From an uncultured bacterium (GTDB lineage Bacteria > Bacillota > Clostridia > Lachnospirales > Lachnospiraceae): a stretch of DNA of 64,000 bases. Position numbers and translations under genes: made by a program. The notes under the pieces are model-generated. The model had not been told where the DNA came from and ran no database searches. It saw nothing but the letters and a program-made list of their open reading frames with translations. Location of the stretch: NCBI GenBank assembly GCA_947243845.1, contig CAMXIF010000010.1, forward strand, positions 39,698 to 103,697. The letters run 5' to 3'. Positions 16,638 to 64,000 of the stretch are shown here, one piece after another (the stretch's first letter is position 1; each line of letters opens with the position of its first letter).

Positions 16638-18554
16638 GATTTCCGGCAGCATTGCCGTAATCAGATAAAAGGGCAGACAAAGCACCATGAAATAAACATA
16701 GCGAAATTCTGTAGCCACAGGTGTTGCGATGAGAACTGTGATCAGGAGTGCAATACTTGGCAGATAACAGATCAGTTTATGATTTTCCCTGCGGATGATG
16801 GCGGTGCCGATACTGAAGAGCATGATCCAGCAGGCCACGCCCATACTCCAGAGCGTACCGTAGATGGGCACCATACTGCCCAGCTTGATGGCGATCTCCT
16901 TGCCCTTGATGACAAGGGGGCCGCCGATCAGCGGGGTATGAGAGACTCCATATTTGGTGGCGCTGACGCCCTCAGCCTCAGCCACCAGATAAAAAGAGTC
17001 GGGATACCAATATCCGTAAGTCTGCTTGACATAGGCGGTGAGATAATCGCCCGGATAACGCAGTCCCAGTTCTATCCATAATCTTAAGAATTCTTTTTTG
17101 TGGGCGGTCAGGTAATCCTGGTTGCCGGCCCGCACCAGTTCTTTGATATTGTCTGCAAAAGTCGGATTGTACAAGTCTTTGATATAGGTTAAGTCCACTA
17201 CATTTTCCACCAGGGCAAGCTGTTGGTCAGTGAGTTCCCGGTCATTACATATAACAGCTGTTATTTGCTGCATGGGAATACAGACAGACTCGATAAAGTC
17301 CGGCTGTTCCACGCGGAAGGCTTTCATCACAGGATATTTGACGATGACGGCGGTGCAGAGAATCACAAGAAGCGCCGGATAGAAGATTTTTGCCTTTTTA
17401 CGGTAGGCAAACAGCAGAAACGGCAGGGCTAACAGGAAAGCATACCAGCCATTGGAGCGGAACAGGCATATCATAATGCCGGATATAATAAAAAGCGCTA
17501 TTTCCGGTAAGCGAATCCGTTCCATGTAGATCAGCCGCAGAATGGTACAGCTGAAGAACAGCACTGCCGCCGCAAAGGGAATGTCTTTCCAGATGGTAAC
17601 GGAAAAGACCGCATGGTAGGGAATCAGGGCGTAGAAGGCCGTGATCAGAAGCAGGACAAAAGGGCGGATCCGGCGGATTCGCAGAGTACTGATAAAGTAA
17701 CTGATACTGCCGGCCAATAGACACATCTGGAAGAAGGTATAGAAGGACACGGCAGTCACCATATTTCCGGTCAAAGCATAGCCGATATGATAGAAGAGTC
17801 CAAACAGCATGGTATGTATCCAGGGATGATGATTGCTATAAGGCGCTATTCCAAGAACCTGGGTAAACTGATTGATGCTGTCCGGCGTCATGATGCCCGG
17901 ATACTGATAGAGATAGTAGGGCAGCCAGCATAACAGGCAGATGCCAAAGGTAGACAGTGCCGTGTGGTTTTTATAAAAACGGATGATCCGTGACAAGCAG
18001 GCGGAAATCCGCGGATGTTCTATTAGTATATAGGAAGAGGGATTGTAGTTCGCCAGCAGGAATTTGTATAGATTCATCTTGTTGCAGGTATAGGAAAACA
18101 GGAATTTCAACAGATAATAAAACAGCGTCACAAACCCCACAAATACCACGGCAAGAATGATGAAGCGGTAGAGCCCGCTTGTGAGAAGTTCAATATAATA
18201 ATTGTAGTCCACCAGCATATAGAGAAGGGTAAAAATAATGGAAGTGATTATCGCAACGCGGTTGGTCACCGGATCGGTATGTAATATGAAGCTGTCCATA
18301 GCGCTGCTTTCGATCAGTTCTCCGCGCAGTGCAAGGAGATTGCGGCCATCCAGCCGGCGGCTTACATGGCGGTAGAAGAAAAAGACCAGGAGGAAGAAGA
18401 CAAATGTCAGGATATTGCCCGGTTCCATACGGGACGCCTTCATCAGAGCCCAGGTTGTCAGGAAACTCTGGAATAAGTGTAATAGAAGTGTTAAATTTAA
18501 TCTGTTGTTCATAATGCCCCCTGCACATAGATAAACTGCTGACTGATACGTCAT
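16617..18554 (-). CDS. Polytopic membrane protein, DUF6020-like (possible GT-C-type glycosyltransferase)
   Basis: 645 aa with many TM segments. YPGIMTPDSINQ, SNHHPWIHT, WKDIPF, FRSNG and FRY motifs recalled from this family. Confidence 0.7.
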   Translation of the reverse strand: MTYQSAVYLCAGGIMNNRLNLTLLLHLFQSFLTTWALMKASRMEPGNILTFVFFLLVFFFYRHVSRRLDGRNLLALRGELIESSAMDSFILHTDPVTNRVAIITSIIFTLLYMLVDYNYYIELLTSGLYRFIILAVVFVGFVTLFYYLLKFLFSYTCNKMNLYKFLLANYNPSSYILIEHPRISACLSRIIRFYKNHTALSTFGICLLCWLPYYLYQYPGIMTPDSINQFTQVLGIAPYSNHHPWIHTMLFGLFYHIGYALTGNMVTAVSFYTFFQMCLLAGSISYFISTLRIRRIRPFVLLLITAFYALIPYHAVFSVTIWKDIPFAAAVLFFSCTILRLIYMERIRLPEIALFIISGIMICLFRSNGWYAFLLALPFLLFAYRKKAKIFYPALLVILCTAVIVKYPVMKAFRVEQPDFIESVCIPMQQITAVICNDRELTDQQLALVENVVDLTYIKDLYNPTFADNIKELVRAGNQDYLTAHKKEFLRLWIELGLRYPGDYLTAYVKQTYGYWYPDSFYLVAEAEGVSATKYGVSHTPLIGGPLVIKGKEIAIKLGSMVPIYGTLWSMGVACWIMLFSIGTAIIRRENHKLICYLPSIALLITVLIATPVATEFRYVYFMVLCLPFYLITAMLPEILYQKQR

Positions 18555-18660
18555 CTTTCTTATATGTATGCAATTCTGTTATTTGCGGGACGATGACGGA
18601 TCAGATGATTATAGATTAATCGATATTGGGGTTTCTGTCAATTATACTGCGTAAAAGTGC

Positions 18661-18689
18661 TTGCAATAGGGAAAAATTGGTGCTATAAT
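18661..18689 (+). promoter_or_regulatory. Sigma-A promoter of the rimP-nusA-infB operon
   Basis: TTGCAA, 17-bp spacer, TG-c-TATAAT. Confidence 0.8.
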
Positions 18690-18718
18690 GGCAAAAGTAT
18701 GAAAGTGATTACTGAGAT

Positions 18719-18747
18719 AAAGAGTGGACTTGCGAGTCCACTCTTTT
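18719..18747 (+). terminator. Leader attenuator hairpin upstream of rimP
   Basis: AAAGAGTGGAC-ttgcga-GTCCACTCTTT(T) lies between the promoter and the rimP start. It matches the position of the Firmicute rimP(ylxS)-nusA leader terminator. Confidence 0.75.
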
Positions 18748-18780
18748 CAGGTACATGAAGTAGATTAAAGGAGTGCAGAC

Positions 18781-19245
18781 ATGTCGAAAAGAGAGACATA
18801 TGAAGAACGGACGGAAGGGCTGCTTGTTTCCATTGTGGAAGAGTTTGGCGTGGAAGTCTACGATGTGGAATATGTGAAGGAGGGGAGAGATTATTACCTG
18901 CGGGTTTATATTGATAAGCCGGAGGGTGTCAATATCCTGGACTGTGAGAATGTAAGCCGTGCACTGTCTGATGTGCTCGATGCGGAGGACTTTATTCCGG
19001 ATGCCTATATTCTGGAAGTCAGCAGTCCCGGCCTTGGACGGACGCTCAAGAAAGATAAACACTTACAGAAGAGTCTGGGGGAAGCGGTGGAGATTAAGAC
19101 TTATAAACCCATCGATGAGCAAAAGGAATTTGCGGGAATCTTAAAAGCATATGATGATGCGCAGATCACCATCGAGGAGGAAGGCGGCGAGCGCATATTT
19201 GAAAGGGCGGACATTGCACTGATAAAACTGGCGCTTAATCTATAG
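18781..19245 (+). CDS. rimP: Ribosome maturation factor RimP
   Basis: LRVYIDK, DCENVSR and YILEVSSPGLGR motifs; position upstream of nusA. Confidence 0.95.
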   Translation: MSKRETYEERTEGLLVSIVEEFGVEVYDVEYVKEGRDYYLRVYIDKPEGVNILDCENVSRALSDVLDAEDFIPDAYILEVSSPGLGRTLKKDKHLQKSLGEAVEIKTYKPIDEQKEFAGILKAYDDAQITIEEEGGERIFERADIALIKLALNL

Positions 19246-19285
19246 TAATATTATAAATCTGGTGAACATAGGAGGATAATGGAAA

Positions 19286-20476
19286 ATGAATAAGGAATTG
19301 ATGGAAGCATTGAATATCCTGGAGAGGGAGAAAGAAATCAGTAAGGAAACTCTCTTTGAAGCGATTGAAAACTCATTGCTCACGGCCTGTAAGAATCACT
19401 TTGGCAAGGCGGATAACGTGATAGTGGAGATTGACAGGGATACCTGTGACTTCCTTTGTTATGCGGAGAAAGAGGTGGTTGAGGAAGTGGAGGATTCGGT
19501 GCTGCAGATTTCCGTGGAGGATGCACAGGAGATTACTGAGGGCGCTAAAGTCGGAGATGTGATTCGTGTGGAGATCAAGTCCAAGGAGTTTGGGCGTATT
19601 GCAACGCAGAACGCCAAGAGCGTGATCTTGCAGAAAATCCGGGAGGAAGAGAGAAGCGTCATCTATAATCAGTACTTTGAGAAAGAGAAGGATGTGGTCA
19701 CAGGTATTGTACAGCGTTATGTGGGAAGGAACATCTCCATCAATCTGGGCAAGGCGGATGCCATCTTAAATGAGAACGAGCAGGTGCGGGGCGAGAACTT
19801 CAGGCCGACCGAGAGGATTAAGGTATATATCCTGGAGGTGAAGAATACGCCCAAGGGTCCCAGAATCCTGGTGAGCCGTACCCATCCGGAACTGGTCAAG
19901 AGATTGTTTGAGTCGGAAGTGACGGAGATCAAAGACGGCACTGTGGAAATCATGAGTATTGCCAGAGAGGCCGGCAGCAGGACGAAAATTGCCGTGCGTT
20001 CCAACAATCCCAATGTGGATGCGGTAGGTGCCTGCGTAGGTATCAATGGTGCCAGGGTCAACTCTATTGTGGATGAACTGTGTGGTGAGAAGATTGACAT
20101 TGTCAACTGGGATGAGAATCCGGGTAATCTGATTCAGAACGCCCTCTCTCCGGCCAAGATCGTGGCGGTGTTTGCAGATCCTGATGAGAAGACAGCCAAG
20201 GTAGTGGTGCCTGATTACCAGCTTTCCCTGGCAATCGGTAAGGAAGGACAGAATGCCAGACTGGCGGCCAGACTGACAGGCTATAAGATTGATATTAAGA
20301 GTGAGACACAGGCAAAAGACGCGCCCGGCTTCCGTGTTGAAGATTACATCTATGATGATGAGGATGAGTATGAAGAGGATGCCTATGAAGAAGGCGGGTA
20401 TGAAGAAGAATATGTGGAAGAAAGTGGTGAGGATGCCGGCGAATATGTAGAGGATGAGACGGCGGTACAAGAGTAG
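19286..20476 (+). CDS. nusA: Transcription termination factor NusA
   Basis: FGRIATQNAK, S1, KH domains (AREAGSRTKIAV, LSLAIGKEGQNARLA) and an acidic tail. Confidence 0.97.
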   Translation: MNKELMEALNILEREKEISKETLFEAIENSLLTACKNHFGKADNVIVEIDRDTCDFLCYAEKEVVEEVEDSVLQISVEDAQEITEGAKVGDVIRVEIKSKEFGRIATQNAKSVILQKIREEERSVIYNQYFEKEKDVVTGIVQRYVGRNISINLGKADAILNENEQVRGENFRPTERIKVYILEVKNTPKGPRILVSRTHPELVKRLFESEVTEIKDGTVEIMSIAREAGSRTKIAVRSNNPNVDAVGACVGINGARVNSIVDELCGEKIDIVNWDENPGNLIQNALSPAKIVAVFADPDEKTAKVVVPDYQLSLAIGKEGQNARLAARLTGYKIDIKSETQAKDAPGFRVEDYIYDDEDEYEEDAYEEGGYEEEYVEESGEDAGEYVEDETAVQE

Positions 20477-53606: not shown

Positions 53607-54920
53607 TCAGGGAAGCATCACCGTAAAGATACTGCCGCCGCCCGGATTGTCGGAAACGGTGATCGTGCCATGATGGAATTTAATGATTTCTGCGGCGATA
53701 GATAAACCCAGCCCGAAGTGCCCTTTGGTGCTTCGGGATTTTTCTGCCCTGTAAAAGCGGTCGAAGATTTTCTTCTTGTCTTCGTCCGGTATGCCGATTC
53801 CGGTGTCAGAGACGGTAAGATAAAAGCGGGATTTCTTATATTGAAGAGACAATTCAATCTGGCCGCCGGCAGGTGTGTAGCTGATGGCATTGTGCAGAAG
53901 GATGGAGAGCACCTGACTGATGCGCTCATCGTCAGCCATGCAGACAGGGACAGAGGTGTCCGGCAGAGTGATGCTGAGTGTCTGGGATTTTTTACGGGCT
54001 ACGGGTTCAAAAGCTTCGTATGTGTTCATCAAAAGGGTATCCAATTCCACTTCTTTGGGGCGGATTGGAAAATTGTGGTTATCAGAGTTGCTTAAAGTGA
54101 GCATGTCATTGATCAGGGATGACATCAGGGCGCCTTCCTGCTGTATGGTGTCAAGAAATCCCTGCTGCTTTTTCGCATCGGCATTGTGGCAGCAATCTAC
54201 GGCAGTGAGGATGACGGATAAAGGCGTGCGCAGTTCATGGGAAGCAGCCGCAATGAAGGCGGTCTGGCGGCGGCGGTTCTCGATGATGGGCTGTAAAAGC
54301 CTGCCTGTAAAAAAGAAGGAAAAGAGTGTTAAGACGAGCACAGCCGTCACATCAATCAGTAGAAAGCGGACCCGTTGTCTTCGGATCTGTTCTTTCAGAA
54401 AATCCAGAGAGTGCAGTATCACCATCTGCAACGAAGAATCATTTCGGTTCAGCTCAATGACGCTGGCGTAGAATTCATGTCTGCCGCCATTAGGGTTAAA
54501 GGGAAATTCGGCGTGAAAGCAGGTATTGTAGAGGCCGGAGTTGAGTTCTTTTCCGGTGACCGTATACTCATATTCATAGGAAGCGTGGTAAGTGTCGAGA
54601 CATTTCTCCAGAAGTTCTTCCGTATCTGTCATTTCAGAAAAACCACCAAGACGATTATATAGAAACGGGATACCGTTATCCATAACAAAAAAGGAATAAT
54701 TGCCGCTGGATTCCATTTTAGAGAGCCATTCCATGGAGATGACGGACTGCTGCTCTAAACTGGTAGTAATGGTATTGATATCGTTTTGAAATGAAGTATA
54801 TTGGTTGTCATAAAGCCCCTTTTCTGAAATATAAAGATAACACAGGGACATTACGATCATGATGGCGGCGGTGATGCCTGCGCACATTGCCGTCAGATAC
54901 AGGTGTACTTTCTGAAACAT
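53607..54920 (-). CDS. Membrane sensor histidine kinase (HisKA/HATPase_c)
   Basis: Two TMs, ASHELRTPL, LLHNAISY, DTGIGI, FDRFYR and GLGLSIA. ATG 54920 follows GGAGG. Confidence 0.92.
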   Translation of the reverse strand: MFQKVHLYLTAMCAGITAAIMIVMSLCYLYISEKGLYDNQYTSFQNDINTITTSLEQQSVISMEWLSKMESSGNYSFFVMDNGIPFLYNRLGGFSEMTDTEELLEKCLDTYHASYEYEYTVTGKELNSGLYNTCFHAEFPFNPNGGRHEFYASVIELNRNDSSLQMVILHSLDFLKEQIRRQRVRFLLIDVTAVLVLTLFSFFFTGRLLQPIIENRRRQTAFIAAASHELRTPLSVILTAVDCCHNADAKKQQGFLDTIQQEGALMSSLINDMLTLSNSDNHNFPIRPKEVELDTLLMNTYEAFEPVARKKSQTLSITLPDTSVPVCMADDERISQVLSILLHNAISYTPAGGQIELSLQYKKSRFYLTVSDTGIGIPDEDKKKIFDRFYRAEKSRSTKGHFGLGLSIAAEIIKFHHGTITVSDNPGGGSIFTVMLP

Positions 54921-54973
54921 GGTTCCTCCGCATATCCGAGTCCACAAACGAACTTTGCTTGTCTGTTATAACA

Positions 54974-55651
54974 TTATTCAGGTTTGACGATGCAATACCC
55001 GACACCCCGGACGGTCTTAAGGGTGAGACGACTGCCCACACTCTTTAATCGTCTGCGGAGAAAATGGATATAATTGTCCAGATTGCCTTCCTCCACGTCA
55101 CTGTCGGGACCCCAGACTTTTAAGAGCAGCGTGGAACGGGGAACAGTGGCCTCGCCGTTTTTTAAGAATGTTTCCAGAAGCGCAGATTCCCGCTTGGAAA
55201 TGGTACAGCTTCCGGTGGGGCCGGTCAGGCGGCTCTGATTGGCTGACCAGGTAATATCAAACAAGGTGACGCTTTCTTCGTCCACAATCTGATGCGGCCG
55301 TCTTGTCACACAGCGGATGCGTGCCAGAAGTTCCTCCAGGGCAAACGGTTTGACCAGATAATCATCGGCGCCCATATCCAGGCCGGTCACTTTATCGGAG
55401 AGGGTGCCAAGCGCGGTGATCAGAATGATGGGTGTGTAGATACCGTTTGCGCGCAGGGCTTCCAGGACATCAGTGCCTTCCATATAGGGCAGCATACGGT
55501 CTAAGAGGATGACGTCATAGATGTTCTGCTCCCCATAGAAAAGGGCGTCCTCCCCGTCAAAACAGGAGTCCACGGCAAAGCCGGCCTGTGTCAGCCCGTA
55601 GGTGAGAGTCTCATTGAGTTTTGCATCGTCTTCGGCTAGAAGTATTCGCAT
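54974..55651 (-). CDS. OmpR/PhoB-family response regulator
   Basis: AEDD, LLDRMLP, LITA, KPF and winged-helix VWG..GNLDNYIHFLRRRL..TVRGVGY. Confidence 0.95.
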   Translation of the reverse strand: MRILLAEDDAKLNETLTYGLTQAGFAVDSCFDGEDALFYGEQNIYDVILLDRMLPYMEGTDVLEALRANGIYTPIILITALGTLSDKVTGLDMGADDYLVKPFALEELLARIRCVTRRPHQIVDEESVTLFDITWSANQSRLTGPTGSCTISKRESALLETFLKNGEATVPRSTLLLKVWGPDSDVEEGNLDNYIHFLRRRLKSVGSRLTLKTVRGVGYCIVKPE

Positions 55652-55720
55652 GTTTTTGGGGTTCCTTTTTACGTATGTTTGTAGGGCTTTGCCCTATCAA
55701 TGCTTATTGCTTTCGTGTAT

Positions 55721-55754
55721 AGTATACCACAACAATCTTGAAGGAATCTCTAAA
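55721..55754 (-). promoter_or_regulatory. Promoter of the OmpR two-component system with a tandem direct-repeat box
   Basis: On the minus strand, TTTAGAGA-ttc-CTTCAAGA, 9 nt, then TATACT (TG-g extended). Confidence 0.7.
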
Positions 55755-55883
55755 AATGTTTTGGAAAAGAATGGGGGTTGAAGAATGGTTATTGCTTTGG
55801 ATGGGAAAAGCGTATATAATTATCGAGTATGACGTACGTGAGATTGCAGCTTCTGAAAAATGATGTAACGAGAGAGACGGATT

Positions 55884-56630
55884 ATGTATTCGATTGCCAT
55901 TTGTGATGACGAAACAGAAGAATTGGATAGAACACAGGAAAGCCTGAAGGATTATATGAAACAGAAATCCATCAGGGATTGTGAGGTGGGGCGGTTTGTA
56001 AATGCGGAAGAACTGCTTTATTCGATGAAGCACAATGATTATATGCCGGATATTCTTCTGCTGGATATTTATATGCCGGAGAAGCTGGGAACAACGCTTG
56101 CCAGGGAAATTCGGGATATGGGCGGTACCAGCCGGATTATCTTCCTGACTTCTTCTAAGGAGCATGCGCTGGAGGCATTTCGTCTGGAGGCGGCCCAGTA
56201 CCTGGTGAAGCCGGTGGTGGAGGCAGAACTGTTTGCAGTGCTTGACAAGTGTTTCCGGGATATTGAGGAGGAGGCGAAGAAGTATCTGCTGTTTAAAGTG
56301 GATGGCAGGATCCGCAGGATCTCGTTAAGTGATATTCTCTACTGTGAGGCGCAGGGCAAACGGCAGTACCTGCATTTTTCGGACGGCACGCATTTAGTCT
56401 TAAATATGACGATGGCTGAGATTGGGAATCTGGTGTTGGATTACCCGGAGTTTACCAAGGTCGGCATTTCTTATATCATCAATATGAATCATCTGGATAC
56501 TTTAAATGCCAGAGAAGCACATCTTGACAATGGACATTCTATCTATCTGCCCAGAGGTTCCTATGGGGTACTGCGGGAGAATTATTTCCGTTATTACTGT
56601 GGGGGGGGGGTAGATCGAGATAAGGTATGA
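55884..56630 (+). CDS. LytTR-family response regulator (AgrA/LytR type)
   Basis: ICDD, LLLDIYMP, FLT, KP receiver; ILYCEAQGK, LNMTM and SYIINMNH LytTR domain. Confidence 0.92.
   Translation: MYSIAICDDETEELDRTQESLKDYMKQKSIRDCEVGRFVNAEELLYSMKHNDYMPDILLLDIYMPEKLGTTLAREIRDMGGTSRIIFLTSSKEHALEAFRLEAAQYLVKPVVEAELFAVLDKCFRDIEEEAKKYLLFKVDGRIRRISLSDILYCEAQGKRQYLHFSDGTHLVLNMTMAEIGNLVLDYPEFTKVGISYIINMNHLDTLNAREAHLDNGHSIYLPRGSYGVLRENYFRYYCGGGVDRDKV
56601..56610 (+). repeat. G10 homopolymer in the last codons of the LytTR gene
   Basis: TGT-GGGGGGGGGG-TAG. Confidence 0.9.
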
Positions 56631-56651
56631 GTGGTATTATGTAAACTAAAA

Positions 56652-56721
56652 TGCAAAGTATACCATAAAAAGTGCAAAGTATACCAAAAACTTTTAATAT
56701 TTTTTTGTTTTATGTTAGAAT
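56652..56721 (+). promoter_or_regulatory. LytTR-type binding site and promoter of the MCP gene
   Basis: TGCAAAGTATACCA at 56652 and 56673 (21-bp period; AAAGTATAC-N12-AAAGTATAC), poor -35, TG-t-TAGAAT at 56713-56721. Confidence 0.75.
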
Positions 56722-56763
56722 AATCTTTACAGAATTTTTGCAGAACTGACTGATGAGAGGTGC

Positions 56764-58770
56764 ATGAAGATGGCAAAGACTATGAAAGGCCGGCTGACGA
56801 TCAGTGTAATCTGCATCGTTGCGGCAAGTATTCTACTTACCACGATGGGAATCGTTATCATTGCGGGACAGCGCATGCTGGTGGAACAGAAAGATATTTT
56901 ACAGCTTTATGCGGATAAATACGCAGAAGAGATTAATACCTGGATCGAGAATGAAAAGATGCTGGCAGGCGGAACTGCGGACAGTATTGAAGCGGCAGGA
57001 GTTCTGGATACGGATTATCTGCAGTCTGTGGTTAATGTACATGCGGCGGGCAGGGAAGAACTGCTGAATCTGTACTGCGGTACAAGGGACAGTGCTTTTA
57101 TTCAGTCCAACAAGGAAGCGGCAATACCGGAAGGATATGATCCGGTACAGCGGGGCTGGTATCAGCAGGCGGCAGCAGCGAAAGAGACGATCGTGACGGA
57201 TCCCTACTGGGATGTGCTGACGGGACAGATGTGTACGACCATTGCCTCACCAGTATACATAGAAGGAGAATTGGCGGCGGTAATTGGTCTGGATGTAACA
57301 CTGGCTACAGTGACGGATCTGACCGGCAGTATCAACTATGCAGAAGGCGTCTATGGATTCCTTGCAGATAGCAGTGGGCAGTATGTATCCCATAGAAATA
57401 AAGAATATGAACCTTCCGAGGAGTCTGCGGTTGCAGTCATGGATATCATGCCGGCGTTACAGTCCCTGATGGAAGGAAATGATAGAAGTATCATCAGAAC
57501 GGCGGATTATGATGGAACCAAATGCTATTTTGCGGCGGCGCCCATTGAGGGCAGCAGCTGGAAACTCGGTGTAGTGTGTCCCAATGCAAATGTTTGGAGT
57601 TCCCTGGTTACTATGATTGTGGTGGCTGTGGTGACTGCGCTTGTGCTTATTGCCCTGGTGGCCGTATTTATGACGGGACTGATCGGCAGGACACTTGCGC
57701 CGGTACAGATGCTCAAACAGTTTGCTTCCGGCGATTTTTCGGAAGATGCGGTGGTGGAGAAAGGGATTCCCAGCCAGTATAAAAATGAGATTGAGCAGAT
57801 AAAGACCGCAACGGTGGAAGTTAAACAGCAGATTCGGGGAATTATTTTAAATACCAAGGAAGAGGCCGGGAATATCAATACCATTGCGGAGGAGACATCT
57901 GCGAAGATGACGATGTTAAATGGTGATATTTCGGCAATGGCATCCACTGCGGGTGAGGTCATGAGACAGACTGCCGAGGCAAAGGCACTGGCGGAACAGA
58001 TCAAAGGCACAGGGGAAGAACTGAGCAGAGTGATCGAAAATGTAGCCAGGAAGGCTGGTGAGGCAGCCAATCAGTCCGGTGATATCATGAGCCGCGCAGG
58101 CAGACAGCATGAGGCTTCCCAGAAATCGGCCAAGGTGGCTGTAGACATGTGCAGTTCTACCATGGAGGAACTTAGCAGCGCCATCAAACAGAGTCAGAAA
58201 GTGAAAGAGATTGATACCCTGACAGAGGAGATTCTGGCCATCAGTTCCCAGACCAACCTGCTGGCGTTAAATGCTTCTATTGAGGCATCGAGGGCAGGAG
58301 AGGCCGGCAAGGGATTTGCGGTGGTGGCAGATGAGATCAGGCAGCTGGCGGATCATTCCAAGAAAGCCGTAGACCAGATCCGCAAAGTGACAGAGGATGT
58401 GGTGCATAGTGTGGCATTCCTTTCAGAAAGTTCCGAGAAACTTCTGACTTTCATGAACGAAAAAGTCATGGAAGATTATCAGGGCATGACGGAACTGGCG
58501 GGCATGTATGAGAAAGATGCCGCCTTCTACAGTGATATTTCCAGTGACCTGGGCGCATCATCTCAGGAGATGAGCGCCAGCATGGACGGCATCAGCGATT
58601 CGCTTGCTACGATCACAGGGCTTGTGGGAGATATCGCAGAATTTATGAAGGAGATGGAGCAGGCGGCGGCAGAGTCCAATGAAAACTCCAGCGCGGTGCT
58701 TGCGCAGATGGAGGAGTTATCGGGACTGAGCGAACAGCTGAAACAGACGGTGGCTTCCTTTAAGGTATAA
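56764..58770 (+). CDS. Methyl-accepting chemotaxis protein (dCache-like sensor)
   Basis: TM1, YDPVQRGWY and TDPYWD (dCache-like), TM2, HAMP-like region and [34 protein letters not shown]. Confidence 0.95.
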
Positions 58771-58806
58771 GAGACACTAGGATGTTGAGATGATATGAGT
58801 ATGATG

Positions 58807-58840
58807 AAAAACGGCATGGCTTGTGGGCTATGCCGTTTTT
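58807..58840 (+). terminator. Terminator after the MCP gene
   Basis: AAAACGGCATGGC-ttgtgg-GCTATGCCGTTTTT. Confidence 0.75.
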
Positions 58841-58941
58841 GTGAAACTTTAATACTCCTTTTTGTGAAACACATAAGCAGTGAGCGGGCAGGACAGAAAA
58901 TGGCGCTCATGAAATATCCTTTCACAAAAATTAAAAGGGTA

Positions 58942-58972
58942 TTGACCCTAACGTAACGTGATGGTTTACAAT
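58942..58972 (+). promoter_or_regulatory. MerR-type promoter with a 19-bp spacer and dyad operator
   Basis: TTGACC (58942-58947), 19-bp spacer, TACAAT (58967-58972). Imperfect dyad ACC.T.ACGT-A-ACGT.A.GGT at 58945-58965. Confidence 0.85.
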
Positions 58973-58996
58973 AATATCACGCGGGAGGATGAGGAT

Positions 58997-59722
58997 ATGA
59001 GGACAGTAAAGGAAGTAAGCAGACTGACAGGGGTGAGTGTGCGCACACTCCACCACTACGATGCAATCGGGCTTTTAAAACCGACAAAGGTAACTGAGGC
59101 AGGCTATCGGCTGTATGACGATATGGCGCTGGGCCGTCTACAAAACATTTTACTGTTTCGTGAATTGCAGTTTCCCTTAAAAGAGATCAAGGAGATTCTG
59201 GGCAATCCGGATTTTGATTCCGATACGGCCCTTGCCCAGCAGATCAGACTTTTGGAACTGCAGTATGAACGAATAGGGAATCTAATCACTTTTGCCCGTG
59301 AAATACAGGAAAAAGGAGTGCGTAAAATGGAATTTGATGTTTTTGATAAAAGCAATATTGAGCAGTATAAGGAAGAGGTAAAGAGCAGGTGGAAACAAAC
59401 CGAAGCCTATCAAGAATTTGTGCAAAGACAGGAGAACGGCGAGGACTTTCATAAGGCGGGAAAAGCATTGATGGATCTGTTTGAGGAAATCGGTATGTTA
59501 CGTGAGTTACCGCCGTCTGACGGGAAAGTGCAGGGGAAGATTCGTGAACTGCAAGGTTTTATTATAAAGCATTATTACAACTGTACCGAGGAAATCTTAA
59601 AAGGCCTGGGGACAATGTATGCGGAAGATGAGCGGTTCCGGCAGAATATTGACAAGGCCGGCGGCAGTGGAACGGCAGAGTTTGTCAGACAGGCGATAGA
59701 GGTTTATTGCTGTGGGGAATAA
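58997..59722 (+). CDS. MerR-family regulator with TipAS-like C-terminal domain (Mta/TipA-like)
   Basis: VSVRTLHHYDAIGLL, GYRLY, LFRELQFPLKEIK and C-terminal GLGTMYAEDERF..NID..G.GTAEFV..AI. Confidence 0.92.
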   Translation: MRTVKEVSRLTGVSVRTLHHYDAIGLLKPTKVTEAGYRLYDDMALGRLQNILLFRELQFPLKEIKEILGNPDFDSDTALAQQIRLLELQYERIGNLITFAREIQEKGVRKMEFDVFDKSNIEQYKEEVKSRWKQTEAYQEFVQRQENGEDFHKAGKALMDLFEEIGMLRELPPSDGKVQGKIRELQGFIIKHYYNCTEEILKGLGTMYAEDERFRQNIDKAGGSGTAEFVRQAIEVYCCGE

Positions 59723-59766
59723 GCCTGAGGGCTTGTAAAGTGTGATAGATGAGCCTATAAGTAAAT

Positions 59767-59812
59767 AATAAGACAGCATACTTTATTGATGGTGGTATGC
59801 TGTCTTATTTTT
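59767..59812 (+). terminator. Terminator after the MerR gene
   Basis: Perfect 15-bp stem AATAAGACAGCATAC / GTATGCTGTCTTATT followed by T residues. Confidence 0.8.
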
Positions 59813-59873
59813 ATATCACCTTTTGGCAGATAATCCGTTAATCCATCAATCTCTGTTTAGATACGGCGCTTCT

Positions 59874-59907
59874 TTTAGAGACACTTTAGAGAAAATCCTG
59901 CTATGAT
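59874..59907 (+). promoter_or_regulatory. Direct-repeat box and extended -10 upstream of lipoprotein 1
   Basis: TTTAGAGA-cac-TTTAGAGA, 9 nt, then TATGAT (TG-c extended). Confidence 0.75.
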
Positions 59908-59976
59908 GTGAAATTAAAAAAGCGGGCCATACATACAAAAACAATAAAAGAAGGCCCGCAGAAAGGATGCAGCAGG

Positions 59977-60672
59977 ATGAGAATGACAAAAAAATGGATA
60001 ACGGCAGGATGCATGGGGATTATGCTCCTGACAGGATTCACAGGGTGTACGAAAACAGAGGAAGCATTACAGCAGACACAGGGGGAGACAGGAAATAAGA
60101 CGGATATGCAGATACCGGAAAAGTCAGGAGACAAAGCGGAGAATCAGAAGGAAACTGATAGCAAGACAGACAATCAGACGCCAGAAAAATCAGGAGACAA
60201 AGCGGAGAATCAGAAGGAGACTGATTACAAAGCGGAGAATCACGCAGACACAGATGAGATGGCTGGACAGAATGCGCAGAACCAGTCGGATTCCGATAAC
60301 GCAGCGGATAACCAATCAGGCCAATCAGCGCCGCAGAAATATAACCCCAGCGAGGGAACAGAACATCTTGGCGGGAAGATACAAAGCGTGGCGGAAGATG
60401 GCATGATTGTTGCCCAGACCACTGTGATGGGAGAGGGAGAAGATGCCGATCTAGTCACGTTAGTGGACGAGAAGGATGCGAAGAAAATCCCCGTGCAATT
60501 TACCGCAGATACCAGGGTGGAACACTGGATCATCCAGGGCGGCGGTGCCGGGATTGATATGCGGGATGCCACGATTTCAGATTTGAAGTCCGGTCTGGGT
60601 GTGGAGTTAGAAGGATATTACGAGGGAGAGAACTTTATAGCTACGCGGATTTTGATTGAGGAATATAAATAA
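59977..60672 (+). CDS. Predicted lipoprotein: disordered linker + C-terminal OB-fold-like domain
   Basis: Signal peptide with lipobox FTG-C. The C-terminus DLKSGLGVELEG...FIATRILI resembles DUF5666-type OB folds (recalled, not searched). Confidence 0.75.
   Translation: MRMTKKWITAGCMGIMLLTGFTGCTKTEEALQQTQGETGNKTDMQIPEKSGDKAENQKETDSKTDNQTPEKSGDKAENQKETDYKAENHADTDEMAGQNAQNQSDSDNAADNQSGQSAPQKYNPSEGTEHLGGKIQSVAEDGMIVAQTTVMGEGEDADLVTLVDEKDAKKIPVQFTADTRVEHWIIQGGGAGIDMRDATISDLKSGLGVELEGYYEGENFIATRILIEEYK
60115..60236 (+). repeat. In-frame 66-bp (22-aa) duplication in lipoprotein 1
   Basis: PEKSGDKAENQKETD at 60115 and 60181, plus a third KAEN. Confidence 0.85.
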
Positions 60673-60682
60673 GGTCGGACGC

Positions 60683-60727
60683 CTAAGAGAGTACTTAGAG
60701 ATTCTTTAGAGAAAAATTTGCTATCAT
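60683..60727 (+). promoter_or_regulatory. Triple direct-repeat box and extended -10 upstream of lipoprotein 2
   Basis: CTAAGAGA-gta-CTTAGAGA-ttc-TTTAGAGA, 9 nt, then TATCAT (TG-c extended). Confidence 0.75.
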
Positions 60728-60745
60728 AAGAAGGAGATTATTAGA

Positions 60746-61342
60746 ATGATGTTACGGATGATGAAAAAGAGCAGGGGAATTTTGACTTTGGTTTGTGCTA
60801 TGATGGTGATGATGCTGGCAACAGGCTGCGGAGAAGATAAGGAAGCGCCGATACCGGTGGACTTGTCTTCGGGGAATCAGCAGGATGAGGCAGAGAATAG
60901 AAAGAGCAGTCAGGCAGACGATGACAGGAGCTCAGATGCGGAGAGTCAAGAAGACAATCGTTCACAGACAGATGGTAAGTCGGAAGGCGAAAACTTACAG
61001 ACAGGACAAACTTGTGGCAACGAGGAGTTAGTAGGTGATGTAAGAGGTATAGGGCAGGACAGTTTTGTCCTCTGTGAATATACGATTGAATCTGACGGCG
61101 CTGTTGCTATTGCAGTGGCGCCGGGGGCCGAAGAGGAAGATGATCTGATTACAGTGTATGTGAATCAGGGCTGTACATATCGACACAAGACGGTCAGAAA
61201 CGGCGGTATCAATCCGGAAGATATTTCAGAGCGGGAAGGATCTTTTGGAGATTTGAAGGATGGGATGACCTGTATCTTGAAAGGAAGCTGGCGGGACGGT
61301 TCTTTCTATGCAGACAGTATCGAGATGGAGGAGTTTGTCTGA
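60746..61342 (+). CDS. Predicted lipoprotein, paralog of 59977-60672
   Basis: Lipobox ATG-C, acidic linker and C-terminus DLKDGMTCILKG...FYADSIEM. Confidence 0.78.
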   Translation: MMLRMMKKSRGILTLVCAMMVMMLATGCGEDKEAPIPVDLSSGNQQDEAENRKSSQADDDRSSDAESQEDNRSQTDGKSEGENLQTGQTCGNEELVGDVRGIGQDSFVLCEYTIESDGAVAIAVAPGAEEEDDLITVYVNQGCTYRHKTVRNGGINPEDISEREGSFGDLKDGMTCILKGSWRDGSFYADSIEMEEFV

Positions 61343-61497
61343 CAGGCGTTGCCCGATGCTGATGGCCATATAGGGCGTCAGCCATGAAACCCGGTTATCA
61401 AAGAATTACAATAGACCAAGATAGAACACAGAGAAAGGCAGAGTGACAGAAATAAATGGATTATTTTTTGAAAGATAAGGAAAAGCAATGTAAGGGC

Positions 61498-63903
61498 ATG
61501 AAAGGGAAAAAACTATTAGCAGTTATTCTTATCCTTTCCCTGATGACAGGACTGCTTGGCGGCTGTGGGAACAGAGATCAATCCACAACCACTGATAAGC
61601 AGGGAGCAGATACAGCACAAGGAAATGTATCCGGTGCCGGGACAGGCACAGAGGACGAAGGGAATGACGCAGAGGATACAGGAACTGCTAACAAGGCCAT
61701 GGGACGCTATGTGGAAAATCCGGTGGACATTTCAGAATACACGACTCTGTCCTGTGGGGTTACCGCGCTGGCGGACGGCAGTTTTATCATTCTGGATAAG
61801 GAAGCGGGTATGCTGGTATCTGAAGATGGCGGTGTGACCTGGAAGGCGGAGGCGGTACCGGGGATTCCGGATTTTGCAGCCTTTACGAAGGACAATTATA
61901 TCTTTACCATGAAGGCAGATACGGACGGCACGATTGCAGTGCTGTCATCCCCCAATACAGATGGGACAGGGGCATTTCATACGGGATTGATTGTAACAGG
62001 ACCGGACGGTGATTCCCGGACGTTTACGGAACTGACGGCTGCAGAGGAAGGATACGTGTCGAATATCTGGTTCGGTCCAGAAGGGCGGCTGTTTGCCGAG
62101 ATTAGGGGAGGCAGTGCACTTTATGAGGTGGATACGCAGTCCGGTGAAATGCATAAGTATATGTCTCTTCCTGTGATGCCGGATCTGCTGCAGTTCCAGG
62201 GGGATTATATGATTCTTCTCACATCGCAGGATGGGATTACCTTTTATAATATGAAAGAAGAGAAGTGGGTAGAAGATTCTGTGCTTGCGGAGTTTATGCG
62301 TCAGAATTATCTGGATGAATATTATTGTTATGAGACCTTTTCAGTCTATATGGTGCCGGGAGAAGAGGAAATTGTCTATGTGGCCGGAAAGGGCGGTGTG
62401 TATCGTCATGTGATCGGCGGCAGTGCGATGGAGCAGATCATTGACGGCGGCCTGTCCACTTTCAGCAATCCGGCAATGAGCATTGTCAATATGATCACAC
62501 TGGAAAACAATGAGTTTATGGCGCTTTTTAGCAGTGGTAAGCTGGTTCGGTATACGTATGATCCGAACGTGCCTACGGTGCCGGATGAACTGGTGACGGT
62601 CTATTCCCTGCGGGAAGAAGATAAAGTACGTCAGGCCATTGCCCAGTACCAGGCCCAGAATCCCCAGACCTTTGTCAGATATGAGGTGGGAATGAGCGGT
62701 TCGGATGCAGCGGGCAGGGAAGATGCCATCAAGAAACTGAACACGGAACTGATGGCGGGCAGAGGGCCGGATATATTGATCCTGGATGATCTGCCGGCAG
62801 ACTCTTATATAGCGAAAGGCGTGCTGTTGGATTTAAGCGATCATATCAGCCAGATGACCGGTGAACAGGAACTGATGCCCAATATTGTGGAGAGTTTCAG
62901 ACGGGACGGTAAGATATACAGTATGCCGGTTTCCTTTACGATTCCGGCGATATATGGCGGGAAAGAGGATTTGACGCAGATTCATGATCTTACCTCTTTG
63001 GCGGATACCATGGAGCGGCTGCGGGAAGAAAATCCCGGCAAGGAGATTATCGGTATGTTTTCGGAGGAAGTGGCGGTAAAGTGGCTTTTGCCGATTTCTG
63101 CGCCGGCCTTTGTGGATCAGTCGGGAAATCTTGATGCACAGGTAATCGCAGATTATCTGGAGCAAATCAACCGGATTTATACAGCATCTATGGACGGCCT
63201 GTCCGATACCTTGCGGGAAACTCATGAAAACAGACGGGAAAGGTACAGAACGGTGGATGCAGATCATTACTATATGGAGGCATATAACAGTCTGGGAAAT
63301 GTTTCGACACAGTTTTTCTTGAATGAGGCTGTGTTTGCGGCGGGAAATCTGAAAAATACTTACGTGTTTCAGGAGGTACTTTCTATCAATAAGATAGAGG
63401 GTTATGAGGATATGAGGATGGTGCCCCTTGACGGGCATTGCAGTCATGTCTTCGTGCCGGAACTTATGACGGGAATCAATGCTTCATCGACACATAAGGA
63501 AGGGGCAGAGGCGTTTTTCGATGTGTTGATGGGCAAAGAGGTGCAGCAGCTTTTCTATGACGGATTTATGGTCAATAAGGCTGCTTTGGAAAATCAGTTG
63601 AGTTCTGAGTGGAAGGTTCTGTTAAACGGCGGCATGAATGTGGATTATGGCGAGATTTCAAGCAGCATTGGCGGCAGTACGGGAGACGGGCGGGAATTCA
63701 GTATGAGTATTTATATGCCAACGCAGGAAGAGTATCAGGAACTATATGATATCTTCTGTGAACTGGACACACCATATATTGCCCAACCGGTGATGGAAGA
63801 GGCATTGGTGGAGATGGGAGCTCAGTATCTGATGGGGTATCTGACTCTGGATGAGGCCGTGCAGAAGATTAAGAGCAAAGTGGATCTGTATATGGCGGAA
63901 TAG
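61498..63903 (+). CDS. Large lipoprotein: N-terminal beta-propeller-like region + C-terminal extracellular solute-binding domain
   Basis: Lipobox LGG-C, Asp-box SEDGGVTW, and SBP-like KLNTELMAGRGPDIL, KGVLLDL and DGKIYSMP. Confidence 0.85.
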   Translation: MKGKKLLAVILILSLMTGLLGGCGNRDQSTTTDKQGADTAQGNVSGAGTGTEDEGNDAEDTGTANKAMGRYVENPVDISEYTTLSCGVTALADGSFIILDKEAGMLVSEDGGVTWKAEAVPGIPDFAAFTKDNYIFTMKADTDGTIAVLSSPNTDGTGAFHTGLIVTGPDGDSRTFTELTAAEEGYVSNIWFGPEGRLFAEIRGGSALYEVDTQSGEMHKYMSLPVMPDLLQFQGDYMILLTSQDGITFYNMKEEKWVEDSVLAEFMRQNYLDEYYCYETFSVYMVPGEEEIVYVAGKGGVYRHVIGGSAMEQIIDGGLSTFSNPAMSIVNMITLENNEFMALFSSGKLVRYTYDPNVPTVPDELVTVYSLREEDKVRQAIAQYQAQNPQTFVRYEVGMSGSDAAGREDAIKKLNTELMAGRGPDILILDDLPADSYIAKGVLLDLSDHISQMTGEQELMPNIVESFRRDGKIYSMPVSFTIPAIYGGKEDLTQIHDLTSLADTMERLREENPGKEIIGMFSEEVAVKWLLPISAPAFVDQSGNLDAQVIADYLEQINRIYTASMDGLSDTLRETHENRRERYRTVDADHYYMEAYNSLGNVSTQFFLNEAVFAAGNLKNTYVFQEVLSINKIEGYEDMRMVPLDGHCSHVFVPELMTGINASSTHKEGAEAFFDVLMGKEVQQLFYDGFMVNKAALENQLSSEWKVLLNGGMNVDYGEISSSIGGSTGDGREFSMSIYMPTQEEYQELYDIFCELDTPYIAQPVMEEALVEMGAQYLMGYLTLDEAVQKIKSKVDLYMAE

Positions 63904-63932: not shown

Positions 63933-64000
63933 ATGAAGATGGCAGGACAGAAGAAAAACAGACAAAAGAGAGGCGGTATCGTTATGGCGGTTAGGCATAA
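63933..64000 (+). CDS. 5' end of a CDS running off the window (MKMAGQKKNRQKRGGIVMAVRH...)
   Basis: GAGGAG RBS, open frame to the window edge, basic N-terminus. Confidence 0.4.
   Translation, partial: MKMAGQKKNRQKRGGIVMAVRH

Follow-up and report, generated by a model that had tools for sequence, protein, structure and literature searches.

The pho boxes of the E. coli PhoB/PhoR and Bacillus subtilis PhoP/PhoR systems consist of 7+4-nt tandem repeats with an 11-bp period, which replace the −35 element and lie about 10 bp upstream of the −10. The pho system activates its own expression, and its core targets include an ABC importer together with the solute-binding protein (SBP). Among cellulolytic Clostridia, where sugars are sensed by three-component systems, CuaDSR controls cuaABC in Ruminiclostridium cellulolyticum. 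In Streptococcus pneumoniae, the CiaR box of the CiaRH system, TTTAAG-N5-TTTAAG, is located 10 nt from the −10 (PMC3091779).

We compared these systems with a two-component system (TCS) encoded in a 64,000-nt stretch of DNA from a gut bacterium of the Lachnospiraceae (the window). Its response regulator (RR) gene and the genes for two lipoproteins, 1 and 2, are each preceded by a box with the consensus yTTAGAGA-N3-yTTAGAGA-N6-TGnTAnnnT. Written as hexamers, TTAGAG-N5-TTAGAG-N10-TAnnnT, the box has the geometry of the CiaR box, also with no −35 element, at 96 of the 108 sites found at related loci. Both systems have an OmpR-family RR of Gram-positive bacteria, two hexameric direct repeats with an 11-bp period, and a small regulon (about 5 to 15 promoters) that includes envelope proteins and the TCS operon itself. 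However, the half-site is TTAGAG here and TTTAAG for CiaR, and the recognition helix is NLDNYIHFLRRRL here and VVEVYVSKVRKKL in CiaR, which rules out the RR as a CiaR orthologue. The predicted targets differ as well, being propeller-SBP proteins with ABC permeases, OB-fold lipoproteins, and an amidase, with no csRNAs or HtrA, and the TGn of the extended −10 is nearly universal in the present system. As in the pho system, 11-bp tandem repeats stand in place of the −35, and an ABC importer with its SBP is among the predicted core targets, but the half-site is different and the SBP combines a propeller and a CUT1 sugar-type domain in one protein. The locus resembles CuaDSR in that a TCS adjoins, and is predicted to control, a CUT1-type importer with lipoprotein SBPs, which may help sensing. 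To our knowledge, regulators of the CuaDSR type do not belong to the orthologous group of the present RR, and neither a propeller fusion, an HlyD-like partner, OB-fold lipoproteins, nor an amidase has been described for such systems. The predicted regulon is new, but conventionally built, around an unusual propeller-fused transporter binding protein.

Direct-repeat promoters in the window and the genome

The sequence-only reading of this DNA had described three promoters of one layout, with an 11-bp period, a TGn extended −10, exactly 9 nt from the box to the −10, and no canonical −35. All of these features were exact to the base at the three sites. The promoter of the operon for the RR and its histidine kinase (HK) lies on the minus strand (55754-55721) and reads TTTAGAGA-ttc-CTTCAAGA-ttgttgTGg-TATACT. 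Its box, predicted to be autoregulatory, occupies 55736..55754 and scored 34.4 bits in the matrix scan described below; the extended −10, TGgTATACT (55721..55729; 9 nt from box to −10), predicts a start at about 55714. The repeat nearer the promoter departs from the consensus, which is typical, as 36 of 49 RR promoters have an off-consensus proximal repeat, and the position of the box is kept at orthologous RR promoters. On the plus strand, the lipoprotein 1 promoter (59874-59907) reads TTTAGAGA-cac-TTTAGAGA-aaatccTGc-TATGAT, with the box at 59874..59892 (37.6 bits; unchanged in the close relatives L131 and L132) and the extended −10, TGcTATGAT, at 59899..59907. The lipoprotein 2 promoter (60683-60727, plus strand) has three repeats, CTAAGAGA-gta-CTTAGAGA-ttc-TTTAGAGA-aaaattTGc-TATCAT, with the box at 60683..60712 (38.0 bits; all three repeats kept in close relatives) and the extended −10, TGcTATCAT, at 60719..60727. 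No TTGACA was found at the −35 positions of box sites, where a conserved AGAww is present instead. A degenerate two-repeat pattern matched four times in the window, compared with 0.06 matches expected from shuffled sequences.

The 3.39-Mb genome (6.8 million positions) was then scanned with a 34-nt matrix trained on sites of other species. Five sites scored 34.4-38.4 bits, including the three in the window, and the next best reached 22.1 bits. The fourth site (C38:17147-17180) lies upstream of a second propeller-SBP lipoprotein paralogue, and the fifth (C13:56146-56179) upstream of a membrane-anchored muramoyl-alanine amidase (Amidase_2 cell-wall hydrolase). The TGn is present in four of the five promoters, the amidase promoter having AG instead. 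From these matches we infer a regulon of five promoters in this genome, serving the RR-HK operon, lipoprotein 1, lipoprotein 2 with its operon, the C38 SBP, and the C13 amidase. The earlier description of the system as self-contained did not hold, since two of these promoters are on other contigs.

The regulator and the box in related genomes

The RR (225 aa; 54974..55651, minus strand) is of the OmpR/PhoB family, with a receiver domain at residues 3-113 (Pfam Response_reg, 1.7e-24) and a winged helix at 150-220 (Trans_reg_C, 1.2e-15). The receiver residues D8/D9, D51, T79, and K101 are present in the translation, and the best solved relatives are DrrD, PrrA, and M. tuberculosis PhoP. The sensor kinase (437 aa counted from ATG 54920; 53607..54920, minus strand) is encoded 53 nt downstream in the same operon, and its orthologues come after the RR gene in 34 related loci. 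Two transmembrane helices enclose an extracytoplasmic domain of about 155 aa, followed by HisKA (Pfam, 2.3e-15) with the H-box SHELRTPL and HATPase_c (2.6e-28); no HAMP domain was found. All NCBIfam equivalogs were below cut-off for both proteins. PhoB was ruled out by TIGR02154, which gave 166.2 bits against a cut-off of 296.2, and no pst/pho phosphate-acquisition genes are present behind the five boxes.

Related loci were chosen only by RR homology, and the site search constrained the repeats alone. The box was present, with unchanged geometry, upstream of RR orthologues of 50-81% identity from Lachnospiraceae and Neglectibacter, comprising those of the same genus (64-81%) and those of Blautia, Diplocloster, Anaerosporobacter, Suilimivivens, and Neglectibacter (50-58%). 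Loci of RR orthologues contained 108 box sites in 404 kb, and the 279 kb of loci around RRs with 47% identity or less contained three, all of them loose and lacking a −10. TAnnnT was located at exactly N9 in 96 of the 108 sites, compared with 0-7 sites for any other box-to-−10 offset, and 87 had the full TGnTAnnnT. Of 151 Lachnospiraceae genomes, 16 carry the RR, and 12 of these had a TG-containing box match, as did 5 of the 135 genomes that lack the RR (Fisher p = 5e-11); the strict pattern had no match in the other four RR-positive ones. Five genomes of the genus (G009, G015, G018, G022, and G023) have neither the RR nor the propeller-SBP, and four of them also have no box. The orthologous group occurs in about 10% of Lachnospiraceae genera, plus Neglectibacter.

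The genes behind the boxes in relatives encode the RR (55), propeller-SBP proteins (48), small lipoproteins (17), permeases (8), amidases (6), and the HK (3). The conserved core target is a propeller-SBP with two CUT1-type permeases and an HlyD/YknX-like protein, the propeller-SBP being the most conserved target next to the RR itself. This range of genes bears on whether the likeness of the boxes reflects nothing but common descent of duplicated promoter cassettes, with no common trans-acting factor. Promoters could have been copied along with their genes, as lipoproteins 1 and 2 are paralogous and so are the SBPs. However, the same box stands before unrelated genes (RR, HK, permease, and amidase), only the repeats and the extended −10 are conserved while spacers and flanks vary, and the box is still present where protein identity has fallen to 25-50%, which together make such descent exceedingly improbable as the explanation.

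The recognition helix of the RR, GNLDNYIHFLRRRL, is invariant in 40 of 40 orthologues. RRs of 42% identity or less have a different helix and no box around them. It can be asked whether another protein binds the box and the adjacency of the RR is coincidental, as genes for a LytTR regulator (55884-56630) and a MerR/TipAS regulator (58958-59722) lie between the TCS and the lipoprotein genes, and other OmpR-type RRs could also be considered. Yet both of these genes are missing from most related loci that keep the box, and the box follows the RR orthologue with its invariant helix across families. The helix occurs only once among the winged helix-turn-helix (wHTH) regulators of the genome; the recognition helices of the five others found by tblastn are unrelated to it. 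An 11-bp period of direct repeats is typical of OmpR/PhoB-family regulators. Binding by another protein is therefore very improbable. The sequence-only reading assigned the box to the adjacent RR, with the RR-HK operon, the two lipoproteins, and the operon of the propeller-SBP as predicted targets. This agrees with the computational tests, namely the presence of the box upstream of RR orthologues, its absence around distant RRs, the joint presence or absence of RR, box, and propeller-SBP, and the invariant helix.

Predicted mode of regulation

It is quite likely, as judged from sequence, that the direct repeats are binding sites of the RR encoded at 54974-55651 and that the RR acts on them by the following mechanism. 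The HK (53607-54920) would sense an extracytoplasmic cue and phosphorylate the RR at D51. A head-to-tail RR dimer would then bind at about −40 to −22, on two (or three) yTTAGAGA half-sites phased by 11 bp, and the bound RR would recruit RNA polymerase with the housekeeping sigma factor to the extended −10 (TGnTAnnnT), because the half-sites occupy the place of the usual −35 element. The RR-HK operon would be positively autoregulated through its weaker, off-consensus site.

Activation is the direction that we infer for this regulation, and the geometry shared with pho-box and CiaR promoters makes activation in place of a −35 likely. The opposite arrangement would have the box serve as a repression operator, at which the RR, phosphorylated or not, blocks RNA polymerase by covering −40 to −22; the promoters would be constitutive through their extended −10, the system negatively autoregulated, and the signal would de-repress it. 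Since promoters with a TGn extended −10 do not always need a −35, repression by a protein bound at −40 to −22 is conceivable in principle; the TG occurs at 87 of the 108 sites. Some OmpR-family regulators, such as CovR, are mainly repressors. However, the orientation and spacing of the box are fixed (N9 at 96 of 108 sites), which fits a stereospecific contact between activator and polymerase and would be unneeded for occlusion. The geometry is that of promoters activated through pho and CiaR boxes, and the −10 hexamers are often weak (TATGAT, TATCAT, and TAAAAT). Repression thus appears improbable.

As the mechanism is conventional, these predictions offer no new principle; they are of value for annotation and for the biology of the target module. 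Hardly any two-component system of gut Lachnospiraceae has been characterised, and what is gained here is a precise predicted binding motif that can be transferred between species, a complete predicted regulon of five promoters, and an orthologous group with an invariant helix. The regulator is also linked to a family annotated only as 'extracellular solute-binding protein', which combines a beta-propeller with a sugar-type SBP and is multiplied in these genomes. Once the signal is known, the box could become an inducible promoter part for Lachnospiraceae genetics.

The propeller-SBP operon and the lipoproteins

The propeller-SBP lipoprotein (801-815 aa; 61498..63903, plus strand; Pfam SBP_bac_8) consists of an N-terminal Asp-box beta-propeller (residues 68-360) fused to a CUT1-type solute-binding domain (364-801), with a pLDDT of 84 for the structure model. 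Its gene in the window has no box of its own, the top upstream matrix score being −15. Read-through from the lipoprotein 2 promoter probably places the gene on one transcript with lipoprotein 2. Its membership in the predicted regulon follows from this read-through, since no terminator is predicted between the two genes and the SBP gene starts 0-75 nt past lipoprotein 2 in the closest relatives. The sequence-only reading had listed the propeller-SBP operon as a probable, downstream target; its place as a target stands through this read-through, but its peripheral rank does not, given its conservation among relatives.

The operon continues into ABC permease 1 (5' end at 63933..64000, plus strand, running past the window to 104541 in contig C10), ABC permease 2 (104557-105420; Pfam BPD_transp_1), and an HlyD/YknX-like protein (105432-106799; Pfam HlyD_3 and Biotin_lipoyl_2), the last two beyond the window. 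Their gene order is the same in relatives. The term surface binding in the sequence-only reading is therefore better replaced by uptake system. BPD_transp_1 is matched twice, by the permeases, and SBP_bac_8 and SBP_bac_1 by the SBPs, so that the cluster-B/family-1 SBP and the two MalF/MalG-like permeases of a CUT1-type importer are found. No ATPase gene of the MsmK/MalK type is present in the locus; Firmicutes CUT1 systems often share an ATPase encoded elsewhere. The regulon most likely yields an inducible system for capture at the surface and uptake of a ligand, which is probably of carbohydrate type.

The closest solved relative of the SBP domain is CbpC of Clostridium thermocellum (PDB 7x0o), with a profile E of 1e-24, a fold E of 1.3e-17, and a TM of 0.74 on target. 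It was the top Foldseek match of the propeller-SBP, followed by sugar SBPs, and the profile search matched CbpC together with WD40-type or designed propeller proteins. CbpC likewise belongs to a CUT1 transporter but has no N-terminal propeller. CbpC has no confirmed ligand, a loop blocks its pocket, and knock-out of its transporter gave no phenotype on glucose, cellobiose, or cellulose (PMC9601137). CbpC thus offers no guide to the ligand of the present SBP.

It is conceivable, though doubtful, that the box marks a conserved, undescribed Clostridia-wide module, in which an uptake apparatus of unusual make spans the envelope under the control of an OmpR-type TCS. Such a module would comprise lipid-anchored Asp-box-propeller/SBP fusions, frequently arrayed in tandem as two to six paralogues with a box each, type-I-importer permeases with an HlyD/YknX-like membrane-fusion protein (joined in some genera by a MacB-PCD protein), OB-fold lipoproteins with long linkers, and an amidase that opens the wall. 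Matched changes of helix and half-site would insulate paralogous modules in one genome from each other (GNLDNYIHFLRRRL with TTAGAGA, SNLDNYIYFLRKRL with TTAGAAR, and GNVDNYISFLRKRL with TTATAGA). At the surface, the propeller would trap a polymeric ligand, such as host or dietary glycan or cell-wall fragments, and it may in addition pass the signal on to the kinase.

Lipoproteins 1 and 2 are paralogues (E 1e-13). Lipoprotein 1 (59977..60672, plus strand; lipobox LTGFTGC) combines a C-terminal barrel domain (about 100 aa) with a long linker, which is acidic, of low complexity, and contains an internal peptide repeat; the protein matched no Pfam or NCBIfam family, and its homologues are also found behind boxes in relatives. 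Lipoprotein 2 (60746..61342, plus strand) is a member of a small unnamed family with no Pfam domain. Its AlphaFold model has a disordered linker (residues 1-92) and an OB-fold-like beta-barrel (93-197, pLDDT above 90), and its fold resembles those of CusF, SilB-C, and YobA only weakly (E 7e-3 and above). The predicted start of its transcript, at about 60734, falls inside the Shine-Dalgarno sequence GGAG (60733-60736), as it does in L131 and L133.

The box in the source genome and its neighbouring genes

The sequence-only reading had described three window promoters with a common layout, in which a direct repeat of 11-bp period and TTAGAGA type (the box) lies 9 nt before an extended −10. All three were present base for base: upstream of the gene for an OmpR/PhoB-type response regulator, RR (55754-55721, minus strand; TTTAGAGA-ttc-CTTCAAGA-ttgttgTGg-TATACT), of lipoprotein 1 (59874-59907, plus strand; TTTAGAGA-cac-TTTAGAGA-aaatccTGc-TATGAT) and of lipoprotein 2, where there are three repeats (60683-60727, plus strand; CTAAGAGA-gta-CTTAGAGA-ttc-TTTAGAGA-aaaattTGc-TATCAT). 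A degenerate two-repeat pattern matched the window four times, against 0.06 matches expected from dinucleotide shuffles. Both strands of the whole source assembly (3.39 Mb, 77 contigs, 46% G+C), in which the window corresponds to C10:39698-103697, were scanned with a 34-nt weight matrix trained on 94 sites from other species, the lowest of which scored 26 bits. Since five sites scored 34.4-38.4 bits and the next best 22.1 and 19.3, the motif marks five promoters in this genome, the three already noted and two new ones. On contig C38, a box (17147-17180; TTTAGAGA-tta-CTTAGAGA-taagatTGc-TATACT) precedes the gene for a lipoprotein of about 800 aa (17255-19681; 808 codons from a TTG start), which is a full-length paralogue, 35% identical, of the window propeller-SBP, a beta-propeller fused to a solute-binding domain. 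On contig C13, a box (56146-56179, minus strand; TTTAGAGA-tat-TTTAAAGA-ttatccagc-TATAAT) precedes the gene for a 370-aa Amidase_2-domain protein that also has an Arg-rich cytoplasmic tail and a single TM helix; a gene for a FeoB-associated Cys-rich peptide comes next.

RR (54974-55651, minus strand) has D8/D9, D51, T79 and K101 in place. Its partner histidine kinase, HK (53607-54920, minus strand), has an outer domain of roughly 155 aa between two TM helices, lacks HAMP, and carries HisKA and HATPase_c domains, as judged from Pfam, NCBIfam and the translation. No NCBIfam equivalog named either protein above its cut-off. Lipoproteins 1 (59977-60672) and 2 (60746-61342) are paralogues (E 1e-13) with no known domain. 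The propeller-SBP lipoprotein (61498-63903; about 801-815 aa) carries a C-terminal SBP_bac_8 domain, and its operon continues on the same strand past the window end with two BPD_transp_1 permeases followed by a 455-aa HlyD/YknX-like protein (C10:103633-106799). The predicted lipoprotein 2 transcript start (about 60734) falls inside the gene's own Shine-Dalgarno GGAG (60733-60736), leaving a leader of about 12 nt, and this arrangement (60722-60748) is kept in close relatives (loci L131 and L133).

Genes for a LytTR regulator, a dCache chemoreceptor and a MerR/TipAS regulator, not kept in related loci, lie between the two-component system (TCS) and the lipoprotein genes. When 55884-59722 was compared with L131, L133 and L134, its content varied among close relatives: LytTR, MCP and MerR genes here, a GntR/ABC-2 pair with a ParE toxin gene in L131, and only an MCP gene in L133. 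The stretch looks like an insertion hotspot, because most other genera have the SBP operon directly divergent from the TCS. The gene for the LytTR response regulator (55884-56630) has ten consecutive G at its 3′ end (56601-56610), which might serve for slippage or phase variation, or else be an assembly artefact. After the MerR/TipAS gene lies a strong terminator hairpin (59770-59812; AAGACAGCATAC, a 13-nt loop, GTATGCTGTCTT and a T-run), which the consensus terminator scan missed because of its loop size; this predicted terminator shields the lipoprotein 1 promoter from transcription arriving from upstream.

Proposed assignment of the box to the adjacent regulator

The proposal that the box belongs to the adjacent RR is supported by five independent lines of sequence evidence: footprinting, an unbiased site count, phyletic pattern, the recognition helix and its uniqueness. 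Footprinting of 19 same-genus loci (RR 64-79% identical) revealed a same-orientation box upstream of nearly every RR orthologue, and often a second, divergent box facing the neighbouring gene. A wider search, with one genome per prokaryotic species, found relatives of RR in Lachnospiraceae bacterium 10-1, Suilimivivens aceti, Anaerosporobacter mobilis, Diplocloster agilis, Blautia MAGs and Neglectibacter. The box was present with orthologues down to about 50% identity and absent with RRs at ≤42%.

To keep the site count unbiased, only the two repeats were sought (≤2 mismatches), with the downstream sequence unconstrained. Loci picked by RR homology (≥50% identity; 404 kb) yielded 108 unique sites, 96 of them with TAnnnT at exactly N9 and 87 with TGnTAnnnT. 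Around more distant RRs (≤47% identity; 279 kb) there were three loose sites, none with either feature. Any other repeat-to-hexamer offset from 5 to 13 nt accounted for 0-7 sites each in a larger set of 142. The resulting consensus is yTTAGAGAwwnyTTAGAGAwwnnynTGnTAnnaT.

Presence of the box followed presence of the regulator. Five genomes of the same genus (G009, G015, G018, G022 and G023) lack both RR and the propeller-SBP, and four of them also lack the box; system-bearing genomes of the genus have 2-8 pattern matches, against 0-1 for a reversed control in most of them. Among 151 Lachnospiraceae genomes from 150 genera, an RR orthologue was found in 15 genera, and a TG-containing box match in 12 of 16 RR-positive versus 5 of 135 RR-negative genomes (Fisher p = 5e-11). 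The module is kept in about one-tenth of Lachnospiraceae genera, and also outside the family.

The recognition-helix stretch VE-GNLDNYIHFLRRRL is identical in 40 of 40 RR orthologues, while overall identity falls to 50%, and every control RR at ≤42% identity has a different helix. One control at 47% (L087) retains it, and there a box-like site precedes the SBP. Of six wHTH regulators found in the source genome by tblastn with the RR DNA-binding domain, RR alone carries this helix.

Several known systems were considered and set aside. RR is not PhoB, as its 166 bits fall short of the equivalog cut-off (296) and the boxes are followed by no pho genes; nor is it CiaR, from which both recognition helix and half-site differ. 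The system is not a Bce-type module either: Bce-type kinases are not known to have an extracytoplasmic sensor domain, and HK has one of about 155 aa. A literature search found no earlier description of the motif or regulon, the motif matches being primers and unrelated items. The promoter architecture is textbook; neither the regulator group nor the propeller-SBP family has been characterised. The regulon prediction lends itself to direct testing and, for purely computational work, has unusually good support.

Mode of regulation and transcription of the propeller-SBP operon

If transcription starts 7 nt past the hexamer, the repeats would lie at about −40 to −22, the usual place of the −35, where the conserved bases are AGAww and not TTGACA. 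The pho box, an activating element, places its tandem 7+4-nt repeats some 10 bp before the −10. The CiaR box, TTTAAG-N5-TTTAAG, stands 10 nt from the −10 (PMC3091779), and its geometry is alike when the present box is written as hexamers, TTAGAG-N5-TTAGAG-N10. The promoters examined here match both activating architectures. Because a single spacing and orientation is allowed, RR would touch RNA polymerase stereospecifically, which argues for activation over simple occlusion. The earlier proposal that RR activates its own gene, HK, the lipoproteins and probably the propeller-SBP operon can be kept as a well-supported prediction: RR probably binds and activates the box promoters. Repression by RR is unlikely; TGn promoters can function without a −35, as that reading would need, but the fixed spacing and orientation fit polymerase contact better than occlusion. 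Explanations other than activation or repression by RR have very little probability.

No box was found upstream of the window propeller-SBP gene (best matrix score in 61301-61500, −15 bits). A candidate decayed box at about 61395-61427, resembling by eye the intact orthologue boxes of L021 and L046, was rejected at −15 bits, and the closest relatives also lack a box there. In these relatives (L131-L134; SBP 79-86% identical) the three boxes recur, the lipoprotein 2 box with all three repeats, and the SBP gene begins 0-75 nt past lipoprotein 2. The 156-nt gap between lipoprotein 2 and the SBP gene in the window held no terminator or attenuator by consensus scan, and its fold was no better than shuffles (z = −0.56). 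From the boxless SBP gene, the boxes and contiguity in L131-L134, and the lack of a predicted terminator or significant structure in the gap, we infer that the lipoprotein 2 promoter most likely also serves the SBP, permease and HlyD-like genes.

Regulon composition, encoded proteins and sister modules

In related loci the first gene behind the box was RR at 55 sites, propeller-SBP at 48, a small lipoprotein at 17, permease 1 at 8, the amidase at 6, HK at 3 and unclassified at 7. Typically, a box-driven RR-HK pair diverges from a box-driven series of SBP(s), permease 1, permease 2 and the HlyD-like gene. Blautia-like loci have a separate box for each of RR, HK, SBP and the permease operon. In some genera, but not in the source genome, the gene after the HlyD-like one encodes a MacB_PCD membrane protein, and no ATPase gene was found within the module. 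At 36 of 49 RR and 5 of 6 amidase promoters the promoter-proximal repeat departs from consensus, mostly as TTAAAGA, whereas it is the consensus TTAGAGA at SBP (32/43), lipoprotein (12/16) and permease (7/8) promoters. The source genome obeys this rule, with CTTCAAGA at RR and TTTAAAGA at the amidase. The conserved difference between promoter classes suggests graded affinity for RR.

A propeller-SBP model built from a 29-sequence alignment (pLDDT 84, pTM 0.82) comprised a beta-propeller (68-360) and an SBP domain (364-801), and the family consensus includes an Asp-box, SxDxGxTW. Foldseek and profile search agreed on C. thermocellum CbpC (7x0o) as best match, and CUT1 sugar-binding proteins came next; the N-terminal half resembles WD40-type and designed propeller proteins. 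Reading a ligand from this closest solved relative was abandoned, as CbpC has no confirmed ligand (PMC9601137). Public homologues bear generic names only. In the lipoprotein 2 model a disordered linker (1-92) leads to a confidently modelled OB-like barrel (93-197), which weakly resembles CusF, SilB-C and YobA (E 7e-3 and above). A metallochaperone role for the small lipoproteins was unsupported, as the invariant columns (V, G, G, A) are all structural and none is Cys, His or Met. In lipoprotein 1 the acidic linker holds the peptide repeat PEKSGDKAENQKETD twice in tandem (60100-60235), and linker length differs widely among aligned homologues.

One relative carries six propeller-SBP paralogues in tandem (G008:C13:35269-50096), with a box (…TGTGATATAAC/A) in most intergenic gaps; by this array, the family appears to be expanding inside the regulon. 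Four relatives (G002, G004, G017 and G013) have paralogous TCS/propeller-SBP modules (RR 43-45% identical) with variant helix/box pairs (L135:7340-7470, L136:5215-5300, L138:5262-5296 and L139:4340-4400). Helix SNLDNYIYFLRKRL pairs with four 11-bp-phased TTAGAAR/TTAGAGA repeats at N10 spacing, and helix GNVDNYISFLRKRL with TTATAGG-N4-TTATAGA-N9-TATACT. Such matched protein and DNA changes look like insulation between sister modules. In the source genome, a third propeller-SBP paralogue (C23:34917-40100; 785 aa, 35% identical to the C38 copy), without a box, comes after another OmpR-type TCS (RR 28% identical) and a gene that, judged by eye, is VanY/M15 D,D-carboxypeptidase-like. Alongside the box-driven amidase, this neighbourhood would be a second link of the propeller-SBP family to cell-wall enzymes.
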